From: a virus
Direction: 5' to 3' (one strand)
DNA: 64,000 nucleotides
IMG/VR virus record: IMGVR_UViG_3300012347_000193
Span: 32,001-96,000 of that record
The number at the start of each line of letters is the position of its first letter. Position 1 is the first letter of the stretch. Below the pieces are notes generated by a model. The model worked only from the letters and a program-made list of their open reading frames with translations, ran no database searches and had not been told where the DNA came from. Shown here one piece after another: positions 1 through 55,468 of the stretch. A program made the position numbers and the translations under genes.

Positions 1-1
1 T

Positions 2-397
2 CAGATTAAGTTTAAGCCATTGAGCTTTAAACTAATCAACCATGCAAGTGTGCAGCAATTTCAGTTTCAAAAGTTCATGCAATCATTATCCGAACTTAAT
101 GAGGAAGACCGAAATGAAAAGAGCAAGAACATCTTACTTGATATCAATAAAATCGCAAATGAGTTGATTTCCGAAAGTATCGAGTACGTCAAAGTTCCCA
201 CTGCCACTGTTATGGAAAAAGAATTCATCATTGAATTCCTAGCAAACTGTGACAAGAATACGTATGAACGTATCAAGGAACACAACATCAAACTCAGAGA
301 AAGCACTGAGACTAAGCCTTTAGAAATCAAATGCCCAAGCTGTAGCAATGAATACAAGCAGGCTTTTAGTATCAACGTATCTGATTTTTTCGATTAA
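2..397 (+). CDS. T4 gp26-like baseplate hub subunit / tail assembly chaperone, 5'-truncated by the window edge
   Basis: The frame is open from base 2. C-terminal CPSC motif followed by ...INVSDFFD*, as in gp26-family C-termini. A gp51-like ORF follows immediately. Confidence 0.7.
   Translation, partial: QIKFKPLSFKLINHASVQQFQFQKFMQSLSELNEEDRNEKSKNILLDINKIANELISESIEYVKVPTATVMEKEFIIEFLANCDKNTYERIKEHNIKLRESTETKPLEIKCPSCSNEYKQAFSINVSDFFD
385..391 (+). other. Predicted -1 programmed ribosomal frameshift site T TTT TTC
   Basis: X XXY YYZ heptamer in the correct phase, one codon before the TAA. The -1 frame is open from 385 to 621 and is the frame of the gp51-like ORF. Confidence 0.7.
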
Positions 398-444
398 GGC
401 TTCTCACCCTTAACTCCGAGGGTGTTAGTAAGCTGATTGAACGA

Positions 445-621
445 ATGGAGAAAGAATGCACCAGCATAAAAAACGACTCACTAAAGATGGCGTGGTTTAT
501 GAGAGGTGGTATATCCTACACGGATATTTTAAACCTCTCAATCAATGAGAGAAAATCCATACACACAATCATTGAAGATAACTTAGAGACTACTAAGACA
601 AGTAAATTGCCGTTCTTCTAA
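445..621 (+). CDS. T4 gp51-like baseplate hub assembly protein (58 aa from the ATG; probably made as a frameshift fusion)
   Basis: Not in the ORF track. Translates as MEKECTSIKNDSLKMAWFMRGGISYTDILNLSINERKSIHTIIEDNLETTKTSKLPFF*; the SY..ILNL...ER pattern resembles gp51. No clear SD upstream. Confidence 0.7.
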   Translation: MEKECTSIKNDSLKMAWFMRGGISYTDILNLSINERKSIHTIIEDNLETTKTSKLPFF

Positions 622-699
622 TATCAGGCTACATACCCATAGAGATTCATTATACTAAGTTTACTGTATTCTTTATCTTAACTGATGAGCTTCGCTCAT

Positions 700-746
700 C
701 TTCCTTCACTTATTTCTTCGCTATCGCTCAGAAATTACGTTCGGAC
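700..746 (-). other. Primosome-assembly-site (n'-pas / ssi)-like ssDNA hairpin
   Basis: The minus strand reads GTCCGAACG-TAATTTCT-GAGCGATAGCGA-AGAAATA-AGTGAAGGAAG. This keeps the motif order of the ColE1/pBR322 pas (CCGAACG..GAGCGCAGCGA..AGTGAGCGAGGAAG), with an ATTTCT/AGAAAT stem and tandem GA pairs. Confidence 0.5.
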
Positions 747-804
747 ATTCTTTAACATATTTGTTTAAGGAAATCTTATACTGAACTTCTATCATATCTA
801 CGGA

Positions 805-1170
805 ATACATATTGCCGCTTTGAAGCCATGGTAGTGCTGTTCAAGCACTACCAATGGTAAAGGGATTTGCCATGCCCGTCATCCTTGCTATCTGTACCCG
901 TTCAATCAGCTTCTTTGTGCTATTGAACGCCACCGGTTCCCCTGTAAAGTTTTTGGTCTGTAGTTGAACTTACGCACGTATGTTTTAATGCTTGGGTCCA
1001 GAAACGCATGTTCTATATCATCAAGATAGAGTAGATATAGACTCATTGAAGGTTCGCTTTTGTCGATTGCCTTCTCGGTGTTCCTTATCATTACTGATAA
1101 GCATACTCCAGAATCTGACGGCTTGTAACTTTCAAAGCAATCTCAAGGAGGACTGTCAACACAGCCTGCG
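805..1170 (-). ncRNA. Large structured non-coding RNA of unknown family (~370 nt)
   Basis: At least 9 helices (forward coordinates): 817-824/1131-1138, 876-881/1116-1121, 882-887/1144-1149 (crossing, i.e. pseudoknot), 829-838/844-853, 899-906/922-929, 931-935/1076-1080, 1012-1019/1034-1041, 1048-1052/1070-1074, 1084-1090/1095-1101. A G-U pair in the 1151-1166 hairpin favours the minus strand. No credible CDS. Ends are approximate. Confidence 0.6.
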
Positions 1171-1189
1171 AATTTTTATTTTAATTAAG

Positions 1190-1723
1190 TTAGGTTGTTT
1201 GTTTTGACGTGGTGTCTGAGATGCTGTATTGTTTGACTAATGTAGTATTAGATTTGAAAAAGTTAGAATGTTCTACAATGATCCAGTTGCCCCACTTTTG
1301 GCTACGATACTGTACACAGTTATCAGTAATCCAATTGAGTTTCTCCTGAACTACAACGTATTGACCTTTGCGATTGAATTTCATAAAAAGTAAATTCAAA
1401 TCACCTTCGTCTTCTACATCAAGTAGTTGTTCTAACCACGAATCAAGTTGCTTACACTCACCCGAAAGAGTTAAGTGCCACGGAAAGTCAGCATAGAATT
1501 TGCATTCTATATTCATTTTAGAAAAACTTTGTCCTGGAACAATGTCTCCTTTGAATGAACGAATCTGACCTTCGTGCAAGAATTCGGTTCTTGCTTGATT
1601 CTTGCCACCCACATAAGCGCCGGATCCGGGAGCACGAATGAACGACTCTCCGTATGTTTCAGAGAGAAATTTTGCAACTTCTCTCTCGTAACCTGATCCT
1701 TTGTTTTTCTGTGGTGATGACAT
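1190..1723 (-). CDS. Holliday junction resolvase (PD-(D/E)XK, Hjc-like)
   Basis: KNKGSGYEREVAK...RAPGSGA...GDI...IECK motifs; lies next to gp46/gp47. Confidence 0.8.
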   Translation of the reverse strand: MSSPQKNKGSGYEREVAKFLSETYGESFIRAPGSGAYVGGKNQARTEFLHEGQIRSFKGDIVPGQSFSKMNIECKFYADFPWHLTLSGECKQLDSWLEQLLDVEDEGDLNLLFMKFNRKGQYVVVQEKLNWITDNCVQYRSQKWGNWIIVEHSNFFKSNTTLVKQYSISDTTSKQTT

Positions 1724-1736
1724 ATAAGTACTTATA
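1723..1736 (-). promoter_or_regulatory. Late-type promoter TATAAGTA inside a 14-bp perfect palindrome; leaderless start
   Basis: Palindrome TATAAGTACTTATA. The minus-strand TATAAGTA (1729-1736) lies 5 nt before the ATG, with no SD. Confidence 0.5.
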
Positions 1737-1756
1737 CTAAAGAACAGTGCCCAAAA

Positions 1757-3829
1757 TTATTCTATGTCTACCGCTGTGTTGTAGCTTGTAAACCCATTCT
1801 CTTTGATAACCTTAAGAACGTTAGGTACTCGGCCGGCTAGTTCTTCGCGGTGAGAAACAAGCCAAATTGACTTATTACGCTTACGTGACATGTCTTTTAG
1901 AATCGCAACACTGTTTTCAACACCCATTGTGTCTAAACCGCTGTCAATCAATTCGTCAATGAACAACGTGTTGATTGGTGAGTACAATGATTCCCATACA
2001 TCACGGAAAGCAAAACTCAAGCCTAGAATCAATCTATTACGTTCACCGCGCGACAAGTTATCAAAGTCAAGTTCACGACCCAACTCTGTAATTTCAACTT
2101 GCAAGTCGTTTTTAAACACAACTTGATGAGGCAACCCGATAGCGTCTAAGTAATGAGTCAATCGACCATTGAGATAACTCAAGTTCTGGTCAATAATCTT
2201 CTTACGAACGAAGCTGTCTTTGCTTGTTAGAATGTCAAGCAAGAACTTTTGATGCTCACCTATCTTTGTCAACTTGTTGATAGCTTCAAAATCGATTTCT
2301 TGTAATGCACCTGATTCCATTTCAGTGATTTGTTCACTGTATGGGTCAGTTTCATCGCCCTTCTTAGCAATAGCATCAAGCAAATTGTTAACAGTAGACC
2401 TGTGCTCAATGGCTTTTGTTTCAGTATCATAGTGAGTCTTTGGCTGCGGCCCTAGAGTAACTGCGGTATGACTTTTTAATTGCTCTGCATAAGGGTCAGA
2501 CTCTGCTTCTTTTTCAAGAATCTTAGTTCTGATATTTTCTAAATCACTACCGTGACGAATTGCTTCTGCTTCTGTTTTATAATGTGTCTTTGGTTTAACC
2601 TCTGCTACAAAAATCTCAACTTGACGTAACTCTTCCCATTGTTTCGTTAACGAGGTTGAGTGTACGGTAGCTTCAATCAACATTTGCTCTTTGTCTGCTA
2701 GAACCTGAGCATGTTGCTCGTCATGGAACTCTTGACCACACGCATAACACTTGTGGTCATTCAATGTAGCAATCTCTGCTGTAAGTTTTTTGATTAGCTT
2801 GTCTTCTTTGTCAATATCTTTAGTAAGACGAGCCAACTCTTTATCACGTGTAGCTAGTTCGGCAGTCTTTGTATTGTATTCTGCTAATGCACGATGGGCA
2901 AGAATTTCTTCAACGACATCAATCTTGCTTAGTTTGATAGTCTCGTTTTCTAAGAAAGTAATGTCCTTTGCTTGTTTTTGCTGCCAAGCAATTTGATGTG
3001 CAACTAGTGCATCATGTGTCTCTTGTTGCTTCTTTTGTGTATTCCAGATTACTAAATCTTTGTGCGCAAGCAACTCGGCTTCGATATCAATGTGAGACAA
3101 CTCATCATATTGGGTAGCAAGATAAGCTAGGTCGCTGTCATACTTTGCTTGCCAAAGATTTCGTCTACGCTTTAAGCTATCAATTTGTTCTTTGACCCGC
3201 TTGTTAGCTTCTTCAACTGCTTTAACTTTAAATTCTTCTTGTTGAATGTTGTCTTTGGTATCCTTCAACATGCCTTTGATAATCTCTGCTTTTTCTGAAA
3301 GCAAAGTGACACCCAATAGCTGTTCGATAATCTCACGTTGTTCGTTATTCTTCAGCGCAAGGAATGGTGTCGAATATGTGTTCAACACCACGATGTGTTT
3401 GAACATATCGCTTGACATATTCAATATCTTTTCGATTTGAGCCTGCGTTTCTTTGTTCTCACCCTGTGCATCATCTTGCTTCTGAAGGGTATTGTTAACA
3501 TAAAACTTTAATACGTTAGGCTTACGTCCGCGTTCGATTTTGTATTCAATGCCGTTGGCACTGAACTCAAGTGTTACCAACATAGCTTTACCGTTTGTGC
3601 GGTTTACTAAGTTATCTTTGCGAATATCATTAATGGGTACGCCGAACAACGCATAGCTAAGACCTTGAATCAACGTAGTCTTGCCCGTACCGTTACGAGC
3701 ACCATCACCACCTAAGTCTAAGTTCTCACCTAGAATTAGTGTTAAGTCTTGTTTGTTAAAGTCTACTGCTTGTGTTACTTGTCCGATTGATAGGAAGTTG
3801 CGTAATGTAATGTTCTTTAAAATAATCAT
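1757..3829 (-). CDS. Recombination endonuclease ATPase subunit, T4 gp46 / SbcC / Rad50-like
   Basis: Walker A NGTGKTT, CYAC zinc hook, LSRGE signature, FIDE Walker B and VSH H-loop, with long coiled coils. Confidence 0.95.
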   Translation of the reverse strand: MIILKNITLRNFLSIGQVTQAVDFNKQDLTLILGENLDLGGDGARNGTGKTTLIQGLSYALFGVPINDIRKDNLVNRTNGKAMLVTLEFSANGIEYKIERGRKPNVLKFYVNNTLQKQDDAQGENKETQAQIEKILNMSSDMFKHIVVLNTYSTPFLALKNNEQREIIEQLLGVTLLSEKAEIIKGMLKDTKDNIQQEEFKVKAVEEANKRVKEQIDSLKRRRNLWQAKYDSDLAYLATQYDELSHIDIEAELLAHKDLVIWNTQKKQQETHDALVAHQIAWQQKQAKDITFLENETIKLSKIDVVEEILAHRALAEYNTKTAELATRDKELARLTKDIDKEDKLIKKLTAEIATLNDHKCYACGQEFHDEQHAQVLADKEQMLIEATVHSTSLTKQWEELRQVEIFVAEVKPKTHYKTEAEAIRHGSDLENIRTKILEKEAESDPYAEQLKSHTAVTLGPQPKTHYDTETKAIEHRSTVNNLLDAIAKKGDETDPYSEQITEMESGALQEIDFEAINKLTKIGEHQKFLLDILTSKDSFVRKKIIDQNLSYLNGRLTHYLDAIGLPHQVVFKNDLQVEITELGRELDFDNLSRGERNRLILGLSFAFRDVWESLYSPINTLFIDELIDSGLDTMGVENSVAILKDMSRKRNKSIWLVSHREELAGRVPNVLKVIKENGFTSYNTAVDIE

Positions 3830-29100: not shown

Positions 29101-32100
29101 TGATACATCAGGTGTTAGAAACATATCGACTACTCTTAAATTTGACAGAGTAAGTTATACTAGTAGAGTAAAGAATTGGCAACCATACAAGTTCTGGTCT
29201 TCTGCATACACTAGTATTGGTAATGACGCATCATCTTCGGTTGACAGTAGTACTAATACAATGTTGTCTAGTTTACAGGGCGTTGTACTACCAATTCAAT
29301 ATTTGGACCCAACTGAAGAATTCGCAGTAGTCACTGTTGATTACAGCTATAGTAACATCTTACCAGGACAAGTAAATGAATCAATGTTGCAGTTCTACAA
29401 AGTAACCGGATCATACACTCCTGAGATTGTTGATGGTACTAATGGTAGAGCACACATTGAAATATACAGACCTAAATTTAGCAACGGTCAATTGTCTGAA
29501 GTATATACTATCAAGATTTTAGATGCAGGCTCAATCTATGCTAATGGTGATACTATTAGAATACAAGGATCAGACTTGGGCGGCGAAGACGGTACCAATG
29601 ATGCAACTATCTTAGTGAAGTTTGCAAATAAAGATACTGGTGCAATCCAAGTTGCTTCTATCTCAGGTCGTGCATCAGGCATCTTTGCAAAATATTATGT
29701 CAAAGCTATTGACAATACTAGACTGCAAATTTACTCAAACCCTACGTATACTCGCAAAGTACCTAGAGCGTCATTCGTATGGGGTGGTGAATTAAATGCT
29801 ACACAGAGCTTTGGTGCAGTAGGTAATGACTACGCATTCATGCCCGAGCCAATTGATGACGATTTCAGTGATTCGCATGATTCAGTTTCTTTAGTATCTT
29901 ACGCTGGCGTAATTTGGGCGTGTACTCAGAGTAATGCTGATGCTGAATTTAACCCAGCAAAGTGGCAACCTCTGACAACTACAGACTTGTCATTAACTGC
30001 ACTAGAAAGAATTGACGGATTCTATCAACCGGGTGTTGGAATGGTTCCAAAAGACCACCAACAATTATTGAAGGGTATCACTTATCCTAACCCAGTATAT
30101 CTAGGTAACAAATTTGCTCCCGATGAAGCGCTTCCAATCGATGTGGTATTGAATGATAACCAGTTTATCAAGAGTACATCAAACATTAAAGGTGTTGTCT
30201 TTAACGGTGAGACATATGTTGCTGTTGCAGAGACTGAAAACTCAATCACAGTGTTGGTCAGAAACGAGAATTTAACTTGGGATCCTGTTCCGTTATCGTC
30301 TGAACGCAAAACAGTTACTGGTATTTCATATTCAAATGAAATGTATGTAATCACAGTAGATGATGATGTGTGTCCAATGTATGTAAGTTTTGATTCTAAG
30401 AAATGGATTTCTACTTCTAAACAAACCTCATTCGACTCTTTAGATTATGATGACGGGTTATTTGACACATCATCAATCACGATTGAATCATTGGGACTGT
30501 TGGCTGTTAACAGAGTAGGTAATAGATTCTTTGTTAATAATACAGCTATCTCAACATCAGAAGATGGCATGATTTGGAAAAAAGTACACACGTTAGGTAA
30601 CAGAAAATACAGTATTATCAAAGATATCGCTTATGCTGAACTATCTGGATTTACAGGCTATATTGCTGTCGGAGAAGGGTACATTGTAACATCAGGGGCA
30701 AATACTCCTGCCCCGGTAGTAGAACTATCATCTAAAATCTTAATCAGTGCTGATGGATCAACATGGGAAGAAGTGTTGCCGGTGACTAGTGCATTTATAC
30801 CAGTCGCTGTTGCAACAAATGATGATGTGATAGTTATTGTTTGTAGAGATGGAAAGATATTTACAAGTGCTTCTCCTACTTCATGGGCAGAGTCAGTAAT
30901 TCTTGGTGATGATGTGACTGAGAATCTAATTGATGTAGCATTTGGTAACAATATGTTTGTTGCTATAGGTGAAGTTAATGCTGATGGCAATAGTGTAATT
31001 CTAATGTCATCTGATGGATTAACATGGACACAACAAACTAATGAGTTGATTGCAACTACTGCGTTGCATCACGTATACTTCGACGGCAGTAATTTCATCA
31101 TCAGTGGAGACCTTGGCACATTGATACAGAGTACAAACGGCGTAAACTGGGAGAATATCTTAGTTGTACGAAGCGAAGACCCGGTATACACCGTTAAGGG
31201 TAGTGACTTCTTGTTTGGTTATGGTCCAGAAGAATTAGTAGCGGGTGTAATCTCTGACAAACTTTCAATGAAAGTTAATACTGCCCCTGGTGCATATTGG
31301 AATCGCTCTGGTGCAGAAGAAATTTGGTACTATGCATCTGGATTTGGAATGAATCAGCAGTACTACACTGTTGATGGTCAACAGACTGTTAATTTTGATG
31401 GGCTAGCTGCAAATGGTATCGGGATGTCAGTATTCTTAGCTAATGTCGATGGAACAATGCAACGTTTGTATGAGGATAGAACTTATCCTAATATGGATTA
31501 TACATACAATGTCAACTGGAACTCTAAAGTTATTACATTTAATGATGTAGATTTAATCGGAGCTTCTGTCTTTGTTGAAGTGTATGAATTTGGAAACGCT
31601 GTAGAGAAGGCTCGCTCAAGTACTGATGCTCAGCCTCTTGTGCTTGATAGTTCTACTGGTCATAGTTCAATCTATACTGGTTTAGATTATGTAGCTTCTC
31701 CAGTAGATCCTGTGATATTTGCATACACTCCGACAACAGGCATGAAACAACTTGTACTTGGTGAAGATTTTAATATCGCAATAGAAGACGGTAAGTTGAA
31801 ACTCGCCCTCACAGAGGCATATAATCAAGAAACTGATTATGTTGTCTATACTATTCCTCGTACAGGTAAGAACCCTGATAATGTCGATGAACATTATGTA
31901 TCTTTCCCAGAAACTCAATTCTTTGTTAGCGGTGGTTCAGATTTTGTAATTGACCTTGATGTTTCACTACATAATATCCCTAACGCAATTGTAGAACTAA
32001 ATGGTTCACGCTTGGTATACGAGACTGATTATGTTATTGAGTTTGTAATTGATGAAGTTACTAACACATACTCTACTAAACCCGTGCTAACACTTGCCGG

Positions 32101-52858: not shown

Positions 52859-52874
52859 AACGGGCAAGTTACTA

Positions 52875-52903
52875 TTGACACAATCGAAAGGTTGTGTTAT
52901 AGT
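52875..52903 (+). promoter_or_regulatory. Sigma70 promoter for the tmRNA: TTGACA-N17-TATAGT
   Basis: Near-consensus with extended -10 TG. It overlaps a GACACAATC-GAAA-GGTTGTGTT hairpin. Confidence 0.85.
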
Positions 52904-52909
52904 ATGAGT

Positions 52910-53250
52910 TATTGCTGTATGAAGCAAAGAGAAAAGTGTTCTGGACGCGGGTTCGAAACCCGCCAGGTCCACCATAAAGCATACTAGTCGGCGACTAAGC
53001 GTAATTAATGCGGTCTCTACGGAGTGAAAGGGTCAGTGGTTCGATTCCACATAGTGTGTTTTATAATGGGCCTGACTTGGATTCGACAGGGCAACAAGTA
53101 AATTAGTGGACAGCTCGGGAATGTGAAACCCGTAGGGTTGGGGGAACTCGGCCGCAGAAGCAAAAAACCATAAATGCAAACGATTCAGTTTACGCATTGG
53201 CTGCTTGATAAAAGCATCCTAGGGTAAGACATACCTCGTAACAGAAACTC
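52910..53250 (+). ncRNA. ssrA: Circularly permuted (two-piece) tmRNA
   Basis: The acceptor piece (T-arm GCGGG-TTCGAAA-CCCGC, CAGGTCC-A-CCA ending 52974) comes before the 5' half GGGCCTG-ACTTGGATTCGAC (starts 53068). The stem has the G3-U70 Ala determinant. Tag ORF 53176-53208 reads ANDSVYALAA* after ATAAAT. Outer ends are approximate. Confidence 0.93.
52980..53059 (+). other. tRNA-like element in the tmRNA intervening segment
   Basis: Acceptor-like stem CATACTA/TAGTGTG directly next to a T-arm GTGG-TTCGATT-CCAC; internal hairpins include C(TACG)G. No CCA and no canonical anticodon arm. Confidence 0.6.
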
Positions 53251-53252
53251 AA

Positions 53253-53280
53253 GAAAAGGCTCTTCGGAGTCTTTTCCTTT
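53253..53280 (+). terminator. Rho-independent terminator of the tmRNA
   Basis: GAAAAGGCTC-TTCG-GAGTCTTTTC followed by CTTT. Confidence 0.85.
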
Positions 53281-53326
53281 GTCAACGTAATGTAAGGCAA
53301 AGGCGTTGTATATGTATGGAGCTAAT

Positions 53327-55086: not shown

Positions 55087-55468
55087 ATACTTTGACACAG
55101 TTTGCTATCACGGAACCTACAATTTAGGCGATAGAATATTGGGACGCTATAAAGGCGTCCCCTTTATTGGCACTGTCGGTAACGATAACCAACTCAACCC
55201 CATCGACGGTCCTTTCTTGACAGTGCATCTTGATTTGCCCATTAAGATTGATGAAGAAATAAAAAATGTTATAATTGTAAAACATCACGAAGTCAACAGA
55301 CTGAAGGAGTATGCGTCTGAAGCTGAATGGATAGCGAAAGCCTCTAAAACTTCTGGTAGTGGGTTCGATTCCCACCAGACGCACCAAAAACCCAAGAAGG
55401 TTGTGAAAGAAATATCTAAGAGAGAATCTTTACTAGACCGACTTAAAACACTTAAAGGTAAAAAATAA
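55073..55468 (+). CDS. Hypothetical protein (SH3-like N-terminal part); its 3' part overlaps a tRNA
   Basis: LGDRI.G.Y.GVPFIGTVGND...VHLDLPI; the frame stays open across the tRNA. Confidence 0.65.
   Translation: MTLAEYFDTVCYHGTYNLGDRILGRYKGVPFIGTVGNDNQLNPIDGPFLTVHLDLPIKIDEEIKNVIIVKHHEVNRLKEYASEAEWIAKASKTSGSGFDSHQTHQKPKKVVKEISKRESLLDRLKTLKGKK
55313..55386 (+). tRNA. Degenerate tRNA, best-fit anticodon CTA (amber suppressor-type; Arg-like body)
   Basis: Perfect acceptor stem GCGTCTG/CAGACGC plus A-CCA, D-arm GCTG/TAGC, loop CT-CTA-AA (55342-55348), 5-nt variable loop, T-arm GTGGG-TTCGATT-CCCAC. Defects: A instead of U8, and only 3 of 5 anticodon-stem pairs. Confidence 0.7.

Follow-up and report, generated by a model that had tools for sequence, protein, structure and literature searches.

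Few large RNAs combine several pseudoknots with long invariant loops, and where such RNAs are understood they are mostly ribozymes or the cores of RNA-protein machines. The GOLLD/ROOL-type ornate RNAs are large, multi-pseudoknotted and non-coding, carried by phages or prophages, and conserved by covariation; our literature search on large structured RNAs of jumbo phages yielded nothing relevant. An RNA motif catalogued in 2010, Polynucleobacter-1 (RF01718), was recorded from Burkholderiales and from freshwater and estuarine samples, function not given (Weinberg et al., 2010, PMC2864571), and a literature search found its name confined to a single paper. Two replication systems are also relevant here. 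In the origins of ColE1 (RNA II and its primosome assembly site, pas) and of T4 (oriF/oriG), the parts come in the order RNA, A+T stretch and same-sense hairpins, and the T4 pair needs only a promoter and an A+T-rich unwinding element and acts via an R-loop (PMC3016281).

Here, we describe a locus in an uncultured giant T4-like lake phage (IMG/VR record IMGVR_UViG_3300012347_000193, 110 kb), whose positions 32,001 to 96,000 constitute the 64,000-nt stretch that was analysed (the window, to which all coordinates refer). It contains a large RNA that, unlike GOLLD/ROOL, is smaller and is fixed beside recombination genes rather than tRNA genes, and that corresponds by position to RF01718.

A protein-free gap between convergent genes

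As a first-pass annotation made from the letters alone had proposed, the largest protein-free gap (622-1189) is the longest stretch in the window without an ORF of at least 80 aa, and it indeed separates convergent units, namely:

1190..1723, minus strand: PD-(D/E)XK resolvase-like gene, 177 aa (PF24608, E 2e-24; phrog_244), the same-strand upstream neighbour of the RNA and outside it
445..621, plus strand: 58-aa ORF, convergent, called gp51-like in the first-pass annotation; the downstream boundary of the locus

Relatives were fetched in two ways, 80 loci via the resolvase gene and 119 more via the RNA motif alone. The region ~805-1190 is conserved in all 80 resolvase-fetched loci (70-96% nucleotide identity) and in the 119 others, and blastn similarity ends at ~805. 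The RNA is present as a single copy at a fixed position in all 200 fetched relatives, and its copy number is likewise one in its own record and in three complete 360-kb relatives. In 105/105 motif-fetched loci that show that side, the RNA is preceded on its own strand, at a distance of 25-88 nt, by the resolvase-like gene, and a homologue of the 58-aa ORF (itself without match in family searches) converges 137-161 nt past the RNA core in nearly all listed motif-fetched loci. No open frame in the gap is kept across relatives, the longest being 43-48 aa and found in some of them.

A covarying RNA with two pseudoknots

The minus strand of 815-1171 encodes a real, non-coding folded RNA of ~355 nt, organised as follows from 5' to 3':

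1172..1180, minus strand: A/U-rich leader, AAUAAAAAU here and AUAAAAAUU in most relatives, immediately 5' of the closing helix
815..1171, minus strand: structured RNA core, ~355 nt, closed by helix P1 (1171-1168/818-815); 99-pair model
1151..1166, minus strand: hairpin Ha, compensatory changes in 4/6 pairs, followed by invariant CCUCCUUGAG (1151-1142)
1084..1101, minus strand: hairpin Hc, covarying stem with a GNRA tetraloop cap (GUAA here, GCAA/GUGA in relatives)
931..1080, minus strand: central four-way junction, in which H3 (1080-1076/935-931) encloses H4 (1074-1048), H5 (1046-1008) and H6 (1005-1000/941-936)
1024..1029, minus strand: 5' arm of pseudoknot PK2 in the H5 loop, partner 893-888; 98.3% of cells pair
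999-965, minus strand: inner hairpin Hd, inside H6
955..957, minus strand: 5' arm of pseudoknot PK1, after invariant ACUACAG (964-958), partner 898-896; 97.8% of cells pair
900..929, minus strand: hairpin H7, compensatory changes in 8/11 pairs
888..899, minus strand: 3' arms of PK1 (898-896) and PK2 (893-888)
869..875, minus strand: box 1, GCAUGGC; the word CAUGGC recurs at 830-825 (box 2)
826..857, minus strand: hairpin H9, 12 bp with one bulge, 97.3% of cells pair; the CCAUGG word of box 2 takes part in its base

In the alignment of relatives, 94.5% of the cells of the 99-pair model are paired, against 33-43% when partners are slid, and compensatory (both-side) changes affect 61/99 core pairs, a figure reached by 0/500 shuffles. 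Folding scores are better than those of shuffles for both strands (z -3.7 and -4.4); it is the excess of G-U (7.1%) over A-C (0.8%) in core pairs that fixes the RNA on the minus strand. Support extends to the interior of the fold, where 10/11 pairs of H5 show compensatory changes. The two pseudoknots are well supported, since PK2 varies at pair 223-380 (UA 31, CG 27) and pair 225-378 (AU 54, GC 4), and PK1 at pair 304-372 (UA 44, AU 11, CG 2, GC 1). A 40-nt insertion was seen at Hc in two relatives.

The earlier description of ~370 nt with at least nine helices captured a covarying multi-helix RNA, but overstated the length of its core and misplaced its closing helix. The 8-bp closing helix it proposed (817-824/1131-1138) is fully canonical in 2/59 sequences and fails because its 5' arm sits in a variable hairpin. 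PK1 and PK2 also differ from the crossing helices that it suggested: one of these (876-881/1116-1121) is compatible with the alignment, pairing in 89% of cells with one compensatory event, but does no better than shuffles, and the other (882-887/1144-1149) is made of nearly invariant bases.

The word shared by boxes 1 and 2, CAUGGC, occurs twice in 52/59 sequences, and the base before each box-like word (875, 818) shifts from G to U jointly (columns 394/457: GG 51, UU 7, GA 1). At a 90% threshold, no column pairs were found in which both bases change and yet remain the same as each other ('twin boxes'), this single position coming from the repeat-word count and a direct test. Self-association through the palindromic CCAUGG words is conceivable.

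Could this be a classical RNA in disguise? The size of the RNA is near that of RNase P RNA and tmRNA, and short words in it recall RNase P CR-I/CR-V and the group I R element, a resemblance that we take as a lead only. Rfam models, those for GOLLD, ROOL, OLE, raiA and HEARO included, matched neither 1-3000 (E up to 1) nor the 421-nt piece 780-1200 (E up to 10), in keeping with the earlier failure to assign the RNA to group I/II introns, RNase P, SRP or 6S. In addition, ARAGORN places a tmRNA, of betaproteobacterial type, elsewhere in the window, the topology is unlike group I and RNase P, the downstream exon of a group I intron is absent (conservation ending at 805), and so is a conserved frame. 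A degenerate group I intron, RNase P RNA or tmRNA, or an overlooked protein gene, is therefore largely refuted as an explanation and deserves hardly any credence.

Promoter and expression

Contigs from two metatranscriptome runs of one study cover 883-1102 and 1125-1700, and one metatranscriptome contig spans the resolvase stop codon and the 5' end of the RNA, DNA carry-over being possible in both cases. Two more runs of uncertain type were left out of the expression evidence. Positions 300-848 have no contig cover in the two true metatranscriptomes, which is uninformative as to the 3' end of the transcript.

A consensus scan of the minus strand upstream of the RNA found no sigma-70-like site. 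The leader is at least 90% conserved at its positions in alignment A1, and its word has a single occurrence in the window; it may be where the transcript is processed or what is left of a promoter. As the phage's usual promoter it was rejected, since it differs from the TAAATA box, and a late-promoter claim was dropped because neither the T4 late box TATAAATA nor the leader word is enriched before genes in this phage.

The reading to which we lean, with modest confidence, is that a single-copy gene occupies the gap and that its product, a large pseudoknotted RNA ending in the hairpins described below, functions as RNA. Read from the minus strand, the RNA would probably be co-transcribed with the resolvase-like gene just upstream and possibly released at the conserved A/U-rich leader. 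Its four-way junction, GNRA hairpin, pseudoknots and long invariant single strands are typical of ribozymes, of ligand- or protein-binding RNAs, and of large ornate phage RNAs. Against this reading we count that no promoter of the RNA was found and that the U tract past the last hairpin is weak.

An A+T-rich linker and a conserved pair of hairpins

Beyond the core, the minus strand continues with three further elements:

749..814, minus strand: A+T-rich linker, variable in sequence, between the RNA core and the hairpins
702..745, minus strand: hairpin A, long and irregular, with two tandem G.A / A.G steps, a 2-bp GC stem and a GAUA loop
684..700, minus strand: hairpin B, in which a GAA triloop closed by C-G (GCGAAGC core) caps a stem of 7 bp

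The AT-rich stretch noticed earlier between RNA and hairpin is confirmed at ~76% A+T (mean 75.7% over 114 relatives, against 59% for the genomes). The pas-like downstream hairpin is equally real (702-745) and has a neighbour (684-700), and both are structurally conserved. They are unique in the 110-kb record. A strict descriptor has matches on the RNA strand in 105/123 unique relatives and none on the opposite strand; scanned over the entire genome of a 364-kb relative, it matches once, directly after the RNA, compared with 0.2 matches in shuffles. Only this strict version was taken as evidence, a relaxed tandem-G.A descriptor having been discarded as too unspecific (222 matches in one genome). 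Hairpin B is found in 115/123 relatives with covarying stems (AAC/GTT, ACC/GGT, AGC/GCT and others), and G-U makes up 3/910 of its pairs, versus 7% in the core. Such near absence of G-U would also fit selection at the DNA level.

If the RNA gene is as we read it, hairpins A and B after the linker would form the 3' end of the transcription unit, where they would terminate the transcript or make it more stable, and protect the convergent baseplate genes. A role mainly as a boundary element, with the hairpins acting as a back-to-back terminator between the convergent operons and the RNA as a structured 3' untranslated tail by which the resolvase message is stabilised or antisense read-through into the baseplate genes controlled, would account for the convergent arrangement kept in every relative, for an A run before hairpin A in many relatives (a U run past the hairpin on the other strand), and for the metatranscriptome contig that links the resolvase gene and the RNA. 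Nevertheless, we think it quite improbable, since neither a tail nor a terminator needs 355 nt with pseudoknots and invariant loops, and the motifs of the cassette are strand-specific (as the descriptor counts illustrate) and used nowhere else in the genome.

Is the locus a replication origin?

The loops of the hairpins are GCGAAGC / ACGAAGT / CCGAAGG words. A review describes mini-hairpins of the GCGAAGC/CCGAAGG type from ssiA and from the sites where primase starts on G4-type single-stranded phage DNA, this motif being far more stable as DNA than as RNA (PMC13037366). This match gives some substance to an RNA-primed origin, the other half of the earlier proposal. In such an origin, the structured transcript would enter the linker and form a persistent R-loop, to be cut into a leading-strand primer, and the displaced same-sense strand would fold into hairpins A and B and recruit primase or a primosome for the lagging strand. 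The order of the parts fits (RNA, 76% A+T linker, same-sense hairpins), the linker providing the A+T-rich unwinding element that is a trait of T4 oriF/oriG, as do the scarcity of G-U pairs in hairpin B, the single-copy locus beside recombination genes, and the related RNAs in integrase-bearing bacterial islands (see below).

Several observations nonetheless make this origin unlikely, and distinguish the locus from those of ColE1 and T4. In the 110-kb record GC skew does not switch at the locus, being negative to its left and to its right, and in the complete 364-kb relative G154 the skew extremes are at ~195 and ~333 kb, the locus being at 293.6 kb. The site is convergent, and the more active T4 origins are found near transcriptional divergence and compositional shifts (PMC3016281). 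No antisense regulator was seen, and an early- or middle-type promoter is not evident in the sigma-70 consensus scan of the minus strand upstream of the RNA. The RNA is over-constrained for a primer, its two conserved pseudoknots and long invariant loops going beyond what a primer needs, and no copy could be detected in three cultured relatives, PA5oct, SCTP-2 and Phosso. Of the earlier interpretation as a whole, the alternative of an unrecognised large phage ncRNA finds support in the strong covariation, the lack of a coding frame and of an Rfam match, and the fixed single-copy site in every fetched relative, and its primer RNA plus pas is weakened by skew and convergence, its A+T linker and mini-hairpin words still speaking for it.

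Relation to Polynucleobacter-1 and wider distribution

DNA similarity searches with 1-2000 and 600-1200 against deposited phage genomes gave no match. Judged by the resolvase protein, the closest cultured phages are SCTP-2, PA5oct and Phosso (39-43% identity), in which the RF01718 model and model R1 (built on the 3' domain of the RNA) detect no copy and other genes directly follow the resolvase. A degenerate core pattern tried on 185,579 bacterial/archaeal genomes was rejected, as it hit four places, with about five expected by chance, none of which holds the RNA.

A parallel comes from RNAs bearing RF01718 words, which are found at the corresponding place in 76 other viral contigs: gp46 precedes them on their own strand in most, a member of the same nuclease (PD-(D/E)XK) family lies at -600 in 8, and a gp26-like gene converges at +630 to +720 in 17. 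The phage-borne RF01718 loci that were tested, from T4-like or jumbo phage contigs, are true matches (9/9, at 55-98 bits). Because our RNA sits in the same genomic slot as these phage-borne RNAs, it is most likely a member of RF01718, and probably a divergent full-length relative, the catalogued motif (141 positions) covering only a portion of a longer element. What speaks for this homology is synteny together with short collinear motifs, since models match in neither direction: the RF01718 model (37-bit threshold), which scores 55-98 bits on controls, finds nothing in 780-1200 at E up to 10 nor in the whole 110-kb record, and neither model R1 nor a profile HMM of A1 has a significant match on RF01718 loci. 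The collinear words common to both are AUGGAA, CACUA...CUUUACAGG, GAUSACGRGCAWG and UUCAAAGCGGCA, and a tandem-G.A hairpin lies 330-470 nt past the motif start in 3/3 bacterial and at least 13/63 phage RF01718 loci. The core of the present subfamily has other helices and pseudoknots than RF01718.

Bacterial RF01718 copies lie in variable islands that carry (two loci) a Zorya-like pair (EH_Signature, SNF2 plus Mrr), type III restriction, an integrase and a conserved divergent DUF6641 gene. This company has suggested to us a counter-defence or conflict RNA, in which the related RNA stands beside defence genes in islands of the host lineage and the phage copy is a decoy, mimic or antidote; the betaproteobacterial-type tmRNA of the phage points to the same host group, and freshwater Burkholderiales are the probable hosts. 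We regard it as doubtful, a shade more so than the origin, because a defence-family search of the proteins neighbouring the bacterial RF01718 copies gave no match, two bacterial loci are its basis, and the homology between phage and bacterial RNAs is without statistical support.

These same islands allow a bolder, and in our opinion improbable, idea, that is, that core and hairpins together make up a strand-specific module for initiation, common to giant T4-like phages and to mobile islands of betaproteobacterial hosts. In such a module, the RNA would control or prime DNA synthesis at the linker, and the mini-hairpins on the displaced strand would load primase. If true, it would place ColE1-like replicon logic within a jumbo phage.

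Concluding remarks

The single-copy RNA gene that we favour is held at one fixed site in 200 fetched contigs of uncultured giant lake phages, and it corresponds by position to a motif catalogued in 2010. What is now defined is (i) the full extent of the RNA, (ii) the distinctive hairpin pair that comes after it and (iii) related copies in mobile islands of the likely host group, and there are concrete alternatives for what the RNA might be, namely a stable RNA machine, a replication start or a conflict RNA. Should it prove to be catalytic, self-assembling or origin-forming, it would represent a new functional RNA class for phage biology.

A conserved large RNA

The RNA encoded at this locus is real, large and doubly knotted, and lies outside all catalogued families by model match. 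It sits in the largest protein-free gap of the window (622-1189, the longest stretch without an ORF of at least 80 aa), where the first-pass annotation had suspected an unrecognised large phage ncRNA. Folding is better than in shuffles on both strands of the gap (z -3.7 and -4.4), which is little proof by itself, and it is the comparative evidence that is decisive. All 80 loci fetched via the resolvase protein align to 805-1190 (70-96% nucleotide identity) and lose alignability over 622-805, and no open frame is kept across relatives over the RNA, the longest in several being 43-48 aa. When 59 distinct sequences are aligned with MAFFT, without reference to any structure, compensatory changes are evident and RNAalifold finds double changes in 37 of 64 pairs. 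Our curated fold (18 helices, 99 pairs) is paired in 94.5% of cells vs 33-43% after a shift of the 3' partners by 1-3 columns, with changes on both sides in 61 of the 99 pairs; none of 500 shuffles matched the observed values. The RNA folds as the minus strand, of the same sense as the resolvase gene, since G-U accounts for 7.1% of cells against 0.8% for A-C. No Rfam 15 model matches, including when E values up to 10 were allowed for a 421-nt piece.

The RNA holds a fixed position in the relatives fetched. A 22-base word from its 3' end occurs in at least 119 additional viral contigs, and its profile has exactly one match in each of 200 loci. The source record and each of three complete relatives have a single copy. 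In 105/105 motif-fetched loci whose contig extends far enough, the resolvase gene is on the same strand, 25-88 nt upstream; the convergent 58-aa ORF lies 137-161 nt past the core in nearly all listed loci. A degenerate core pattern run on 185,579 prokaryote genomes gave chance matches only. As for expression, among contigs of public runs (two metatranscriptome runs, one study), contigs from 90-99% similar relatives span 883-1102 and 1125-1700, and one joins the resolvase stop codon to the RNA 5' end, a weak hint of co-transcription with the resolvase gene; such contigs may also stem from DNA in the libraries.

The phage

The source record is a 110,650-bp IMG/VR virus (the window being bases 32001-96000), estimated to be 32% complete. 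It represents a giant T4-like phage, as judged from complete relatives of 360-367 kb, a Rad50/SbcC-like gp46 gene downstream on the minus strand and, beyond it on that strand, frames that we take, from their translations only, to be gp47-like and gp55-like. Among cultured phages, SCTP-2, PA5oct and Phosso have the closest resolvase proteins, which share only 39-43% identity with that of this phage. The phage also encodes a permuted, two-piece tmRNA of betaproteobacterial type (52861-53299, plus strand; ARAGORN tag ANDSVYALAA; Rfam beta_tmRNA 102.7 bits, tmRNA_permuted 119.2 bits), which points to a freshwater Burkholderiales host, the same group as the bacteria carrying the Rfam Polynucleobacter-1 motif (RF01718). 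A tRNA with anticodon CUA (55313-55386, plus strand; Rfam tRNA 57 bits), labelled tRNA-Pyl by ARAGORN, is possibly an amber suppressor.

Architecture of the RNA

Features of the locus (window coordinates)
1190-1723, minus: PD-(D/E)XK resolvase-like gene (PF24608)
1171-1168/818-815, minus: P1, domain-closing helix of the curated model
1166-1151, minus: hairpin Ha, followed by invariant CCUCCUUGAG
1138-1121, minus: hairpin Hb, variable, curated model
1101-1084, minus: hairpin Hc with GNRA loop, curated model
1080-1076/935-931, minus: H3, enclosing H4, H5 and H6
957-955 with 898-896, minus: pseudoknot PK1; variable pair U-A 44, A-U 11, C-G 2, G-C 1
1029-1024 (H5 loop) with 893-888, minus: pseudoknot PK2; one pair U-A 31 vs C-G 27
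929-900, minus: hairpin H7, after the four-way junction
857-826, minus: hairpin H9, after H7
702-745, minus: hairpin A; covarying outer stem, tandem G.A/A.G step, 2-bp stem, GAA or GAUA loop
684-700, minus: hairpin B; covarying 7-9-bp stem, GAA triloop closed by C-G
445-621, plus: 58-aa ORF, convergent neighbour bounding 622-1189, without family match

Around Hb, the CUCC of CCUCCUUGAG has a potential pairing partner in an invariant GGAG (1109-1106). H3 forms a four-way junction with H4, H5 and H6, the last of which contains hairpin Hd and an invariant ACUACAG. Both pseudoknots, PK1 and PK2, are well supported by the sequence comparison. Long stretches of the core are unpaired and near-invariant, e.g. 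GGAUGACGGGCAUGGCAAAU, and the word CAUGGC is present twice in 52/59 sequences, the base preceding each box-like word changing jointly from G to U (GG 51, UU 7, GA 1). Two relatives (L021:4568-4984, L027:4569-4985) have a ~40-nt insertion in GNRA-capped Hc, which thus tolerates expansion.

The original observation was right in substance, with two of its three named helices not upheld. Of 59 sequences, only 2 can form the proposed 8-bp closing helix (817-824/1131-1138) with canonical pairs throughout; it is thus a coincidence of this phage. The helix 876-881/1116-1121 is compatible with the alignment (89% of cells pair, 22-56% when slid) but does not rise above shuffles. Its variable arm changes by transitions only, none of which disrupts pairing to the invariant arm, and there is one compensatory event. 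One position fails to pair in 33 sequences, and a local covarying helix is a rival. In 882-887/1144-1149, both arms are nearly invariant words.

A conserved hairpin cassette

The spacer (622-805) is unalignable by blastn, and folding it in relatives gives the same two hairpins everywhere. As a real and conserved component of the locus, not described before, the pair bears out the hairpin first noticed for its likeness to the ColE1 primosome assembly site (pas). Hairpin B is present in 115/123 distinct relatives; hairpin A was found in 88/115 by a first search anchored on B, and in 105/123, with none on the opposite strand, by a strict free-standing descriptor. In this phage and its closest relatives, hairpin A has an added second G.A step. 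The 110-kb record has a single occurrence of each motif, and the combined descriptor has one match in a complete 364-kb relative, directly past its RNA (shuffles 0.2). Past RF01718 copies, too, there is a tandem-G.A hairpin, in 3/3 of those read in bacteria and at least 13/63 of those in phages, the latter figure being only suggestive given the wider descriptor's 10-14% background. Between hairpin B and the 58-aa ORF stop codon, a conserved word (~640-665, minus strand) reads GATAAATGA in most relatives and TATAATGA here; resembling the phage's TAAATA box and lying on the RNA's strand, it would putatively drive antisense transcription into baseplate genes.

A positional counterpart of Polynucleobacter-1

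The RF01718 model has no match in the source genome, SCTP-2, PA5oct or Phosso; it scores above cut-off in three small Burkholderiales genomes and more weakly in a fourth. A word from its conserved centre occurs in 76 viral contigs (9/9 tested were true matches, 55-98 bits), in most of which gp46 lies upstream on the same strand, with a homologue of this phage's nuclease (49-52% identity) at -600 in eight and a convergent gp26-like gene at +630 to +720 in seventeen. The RNA in these contigs occupies the same genomic slot as ours, and the two have short words in common, in the same order; RF01718 loci match neither the profile of our RNA nor R1, a covariance model built for its 3' domain. With slot and collinear words set against the lack of a reciprocal match, our RNA is the positional counterpart of RF01718, and probably a distant relative, rather than a demonstrated member.

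In two Polynucleobacter-like genomes (L213:6730-15738, L214:2734-9695) the RF01718 RNA is divergent from a DUF6641 gene, followed in one of them by DUF6876. The surrounding regions are variable and contain an integrase, a type III restriction-modification system and a Zorya-like pair (EH_Signature plus SNF2/Mrr); no neighbour matches a known defence family.

Replication origin or RNA gene?

The first-pass annotation also proposed an RNA-primed replication origin, a reading that could draw on the A+T-rich linker between core and hairpins (75.7% A+T, genomes 59%), on related RNAs within integrase-bearing islands and on the DNA-type hairpins. G-U is nearly absent from hairpin B (3/910 pairs), and the loop words GCGAAGC, ACGAAGT and CCGAAGG are the 'mini-hairpin' motif, which a review locates in the single-strand initiation site ssiA and where primase starts on G4-type phage DNA; as DNA, the motif is reported to have a much higher stability than as RNA (PMC13037366). 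However, cumulative GC skew does not switch at the locus in the 110-kb record, nor in G154, a complete relative of 364,247 bp with terminal repeats, where extremes fall at ~195 and ~333 kb and a monotonic arm carries the RNA, at 293.6 kb. Transcription is convergent here, whereas the more active T4 origins lie near transcriptional divergence and compositional shifts; T4 oriF and oriG combine a middle-mode promoter with an A+T-rich unwinding element (PMC3016281), and no promoter of that type is evident, the conserved A/U-rich leader differing from the phage's usual TAAATA box. Pseudoknots and invariant loops would also be superfluous for a primer. Having failed on skew and transcription context, an origin is still a candidate, albeit an unlikely one. 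Elsewhere in G154, skew is negative over ~35 kb (300-335 kb) where long ORFs are all on the plus strand, turning at ~333 kb; as it does not simply follow transcription there, this turn is a better replication-switch candidate than the RNA locus.

Conclusion

This work adds the synteny link to RF01718, a test of skew over a whole genome, and a definition of the 3' hairpin cassette together with a measure of how specific it is. By position, the RNA corresponds to the uncharacterised Polynucleobacter-1 motif, which was listed without any function (PMC2864571). Integrase-bearing islands and a shared host group indicate that this RNA family belongs to the mobile elements of one ecosystem, a home that fits equally well a role in element propagation (origin, conflict RNA) and a general RNA machine.
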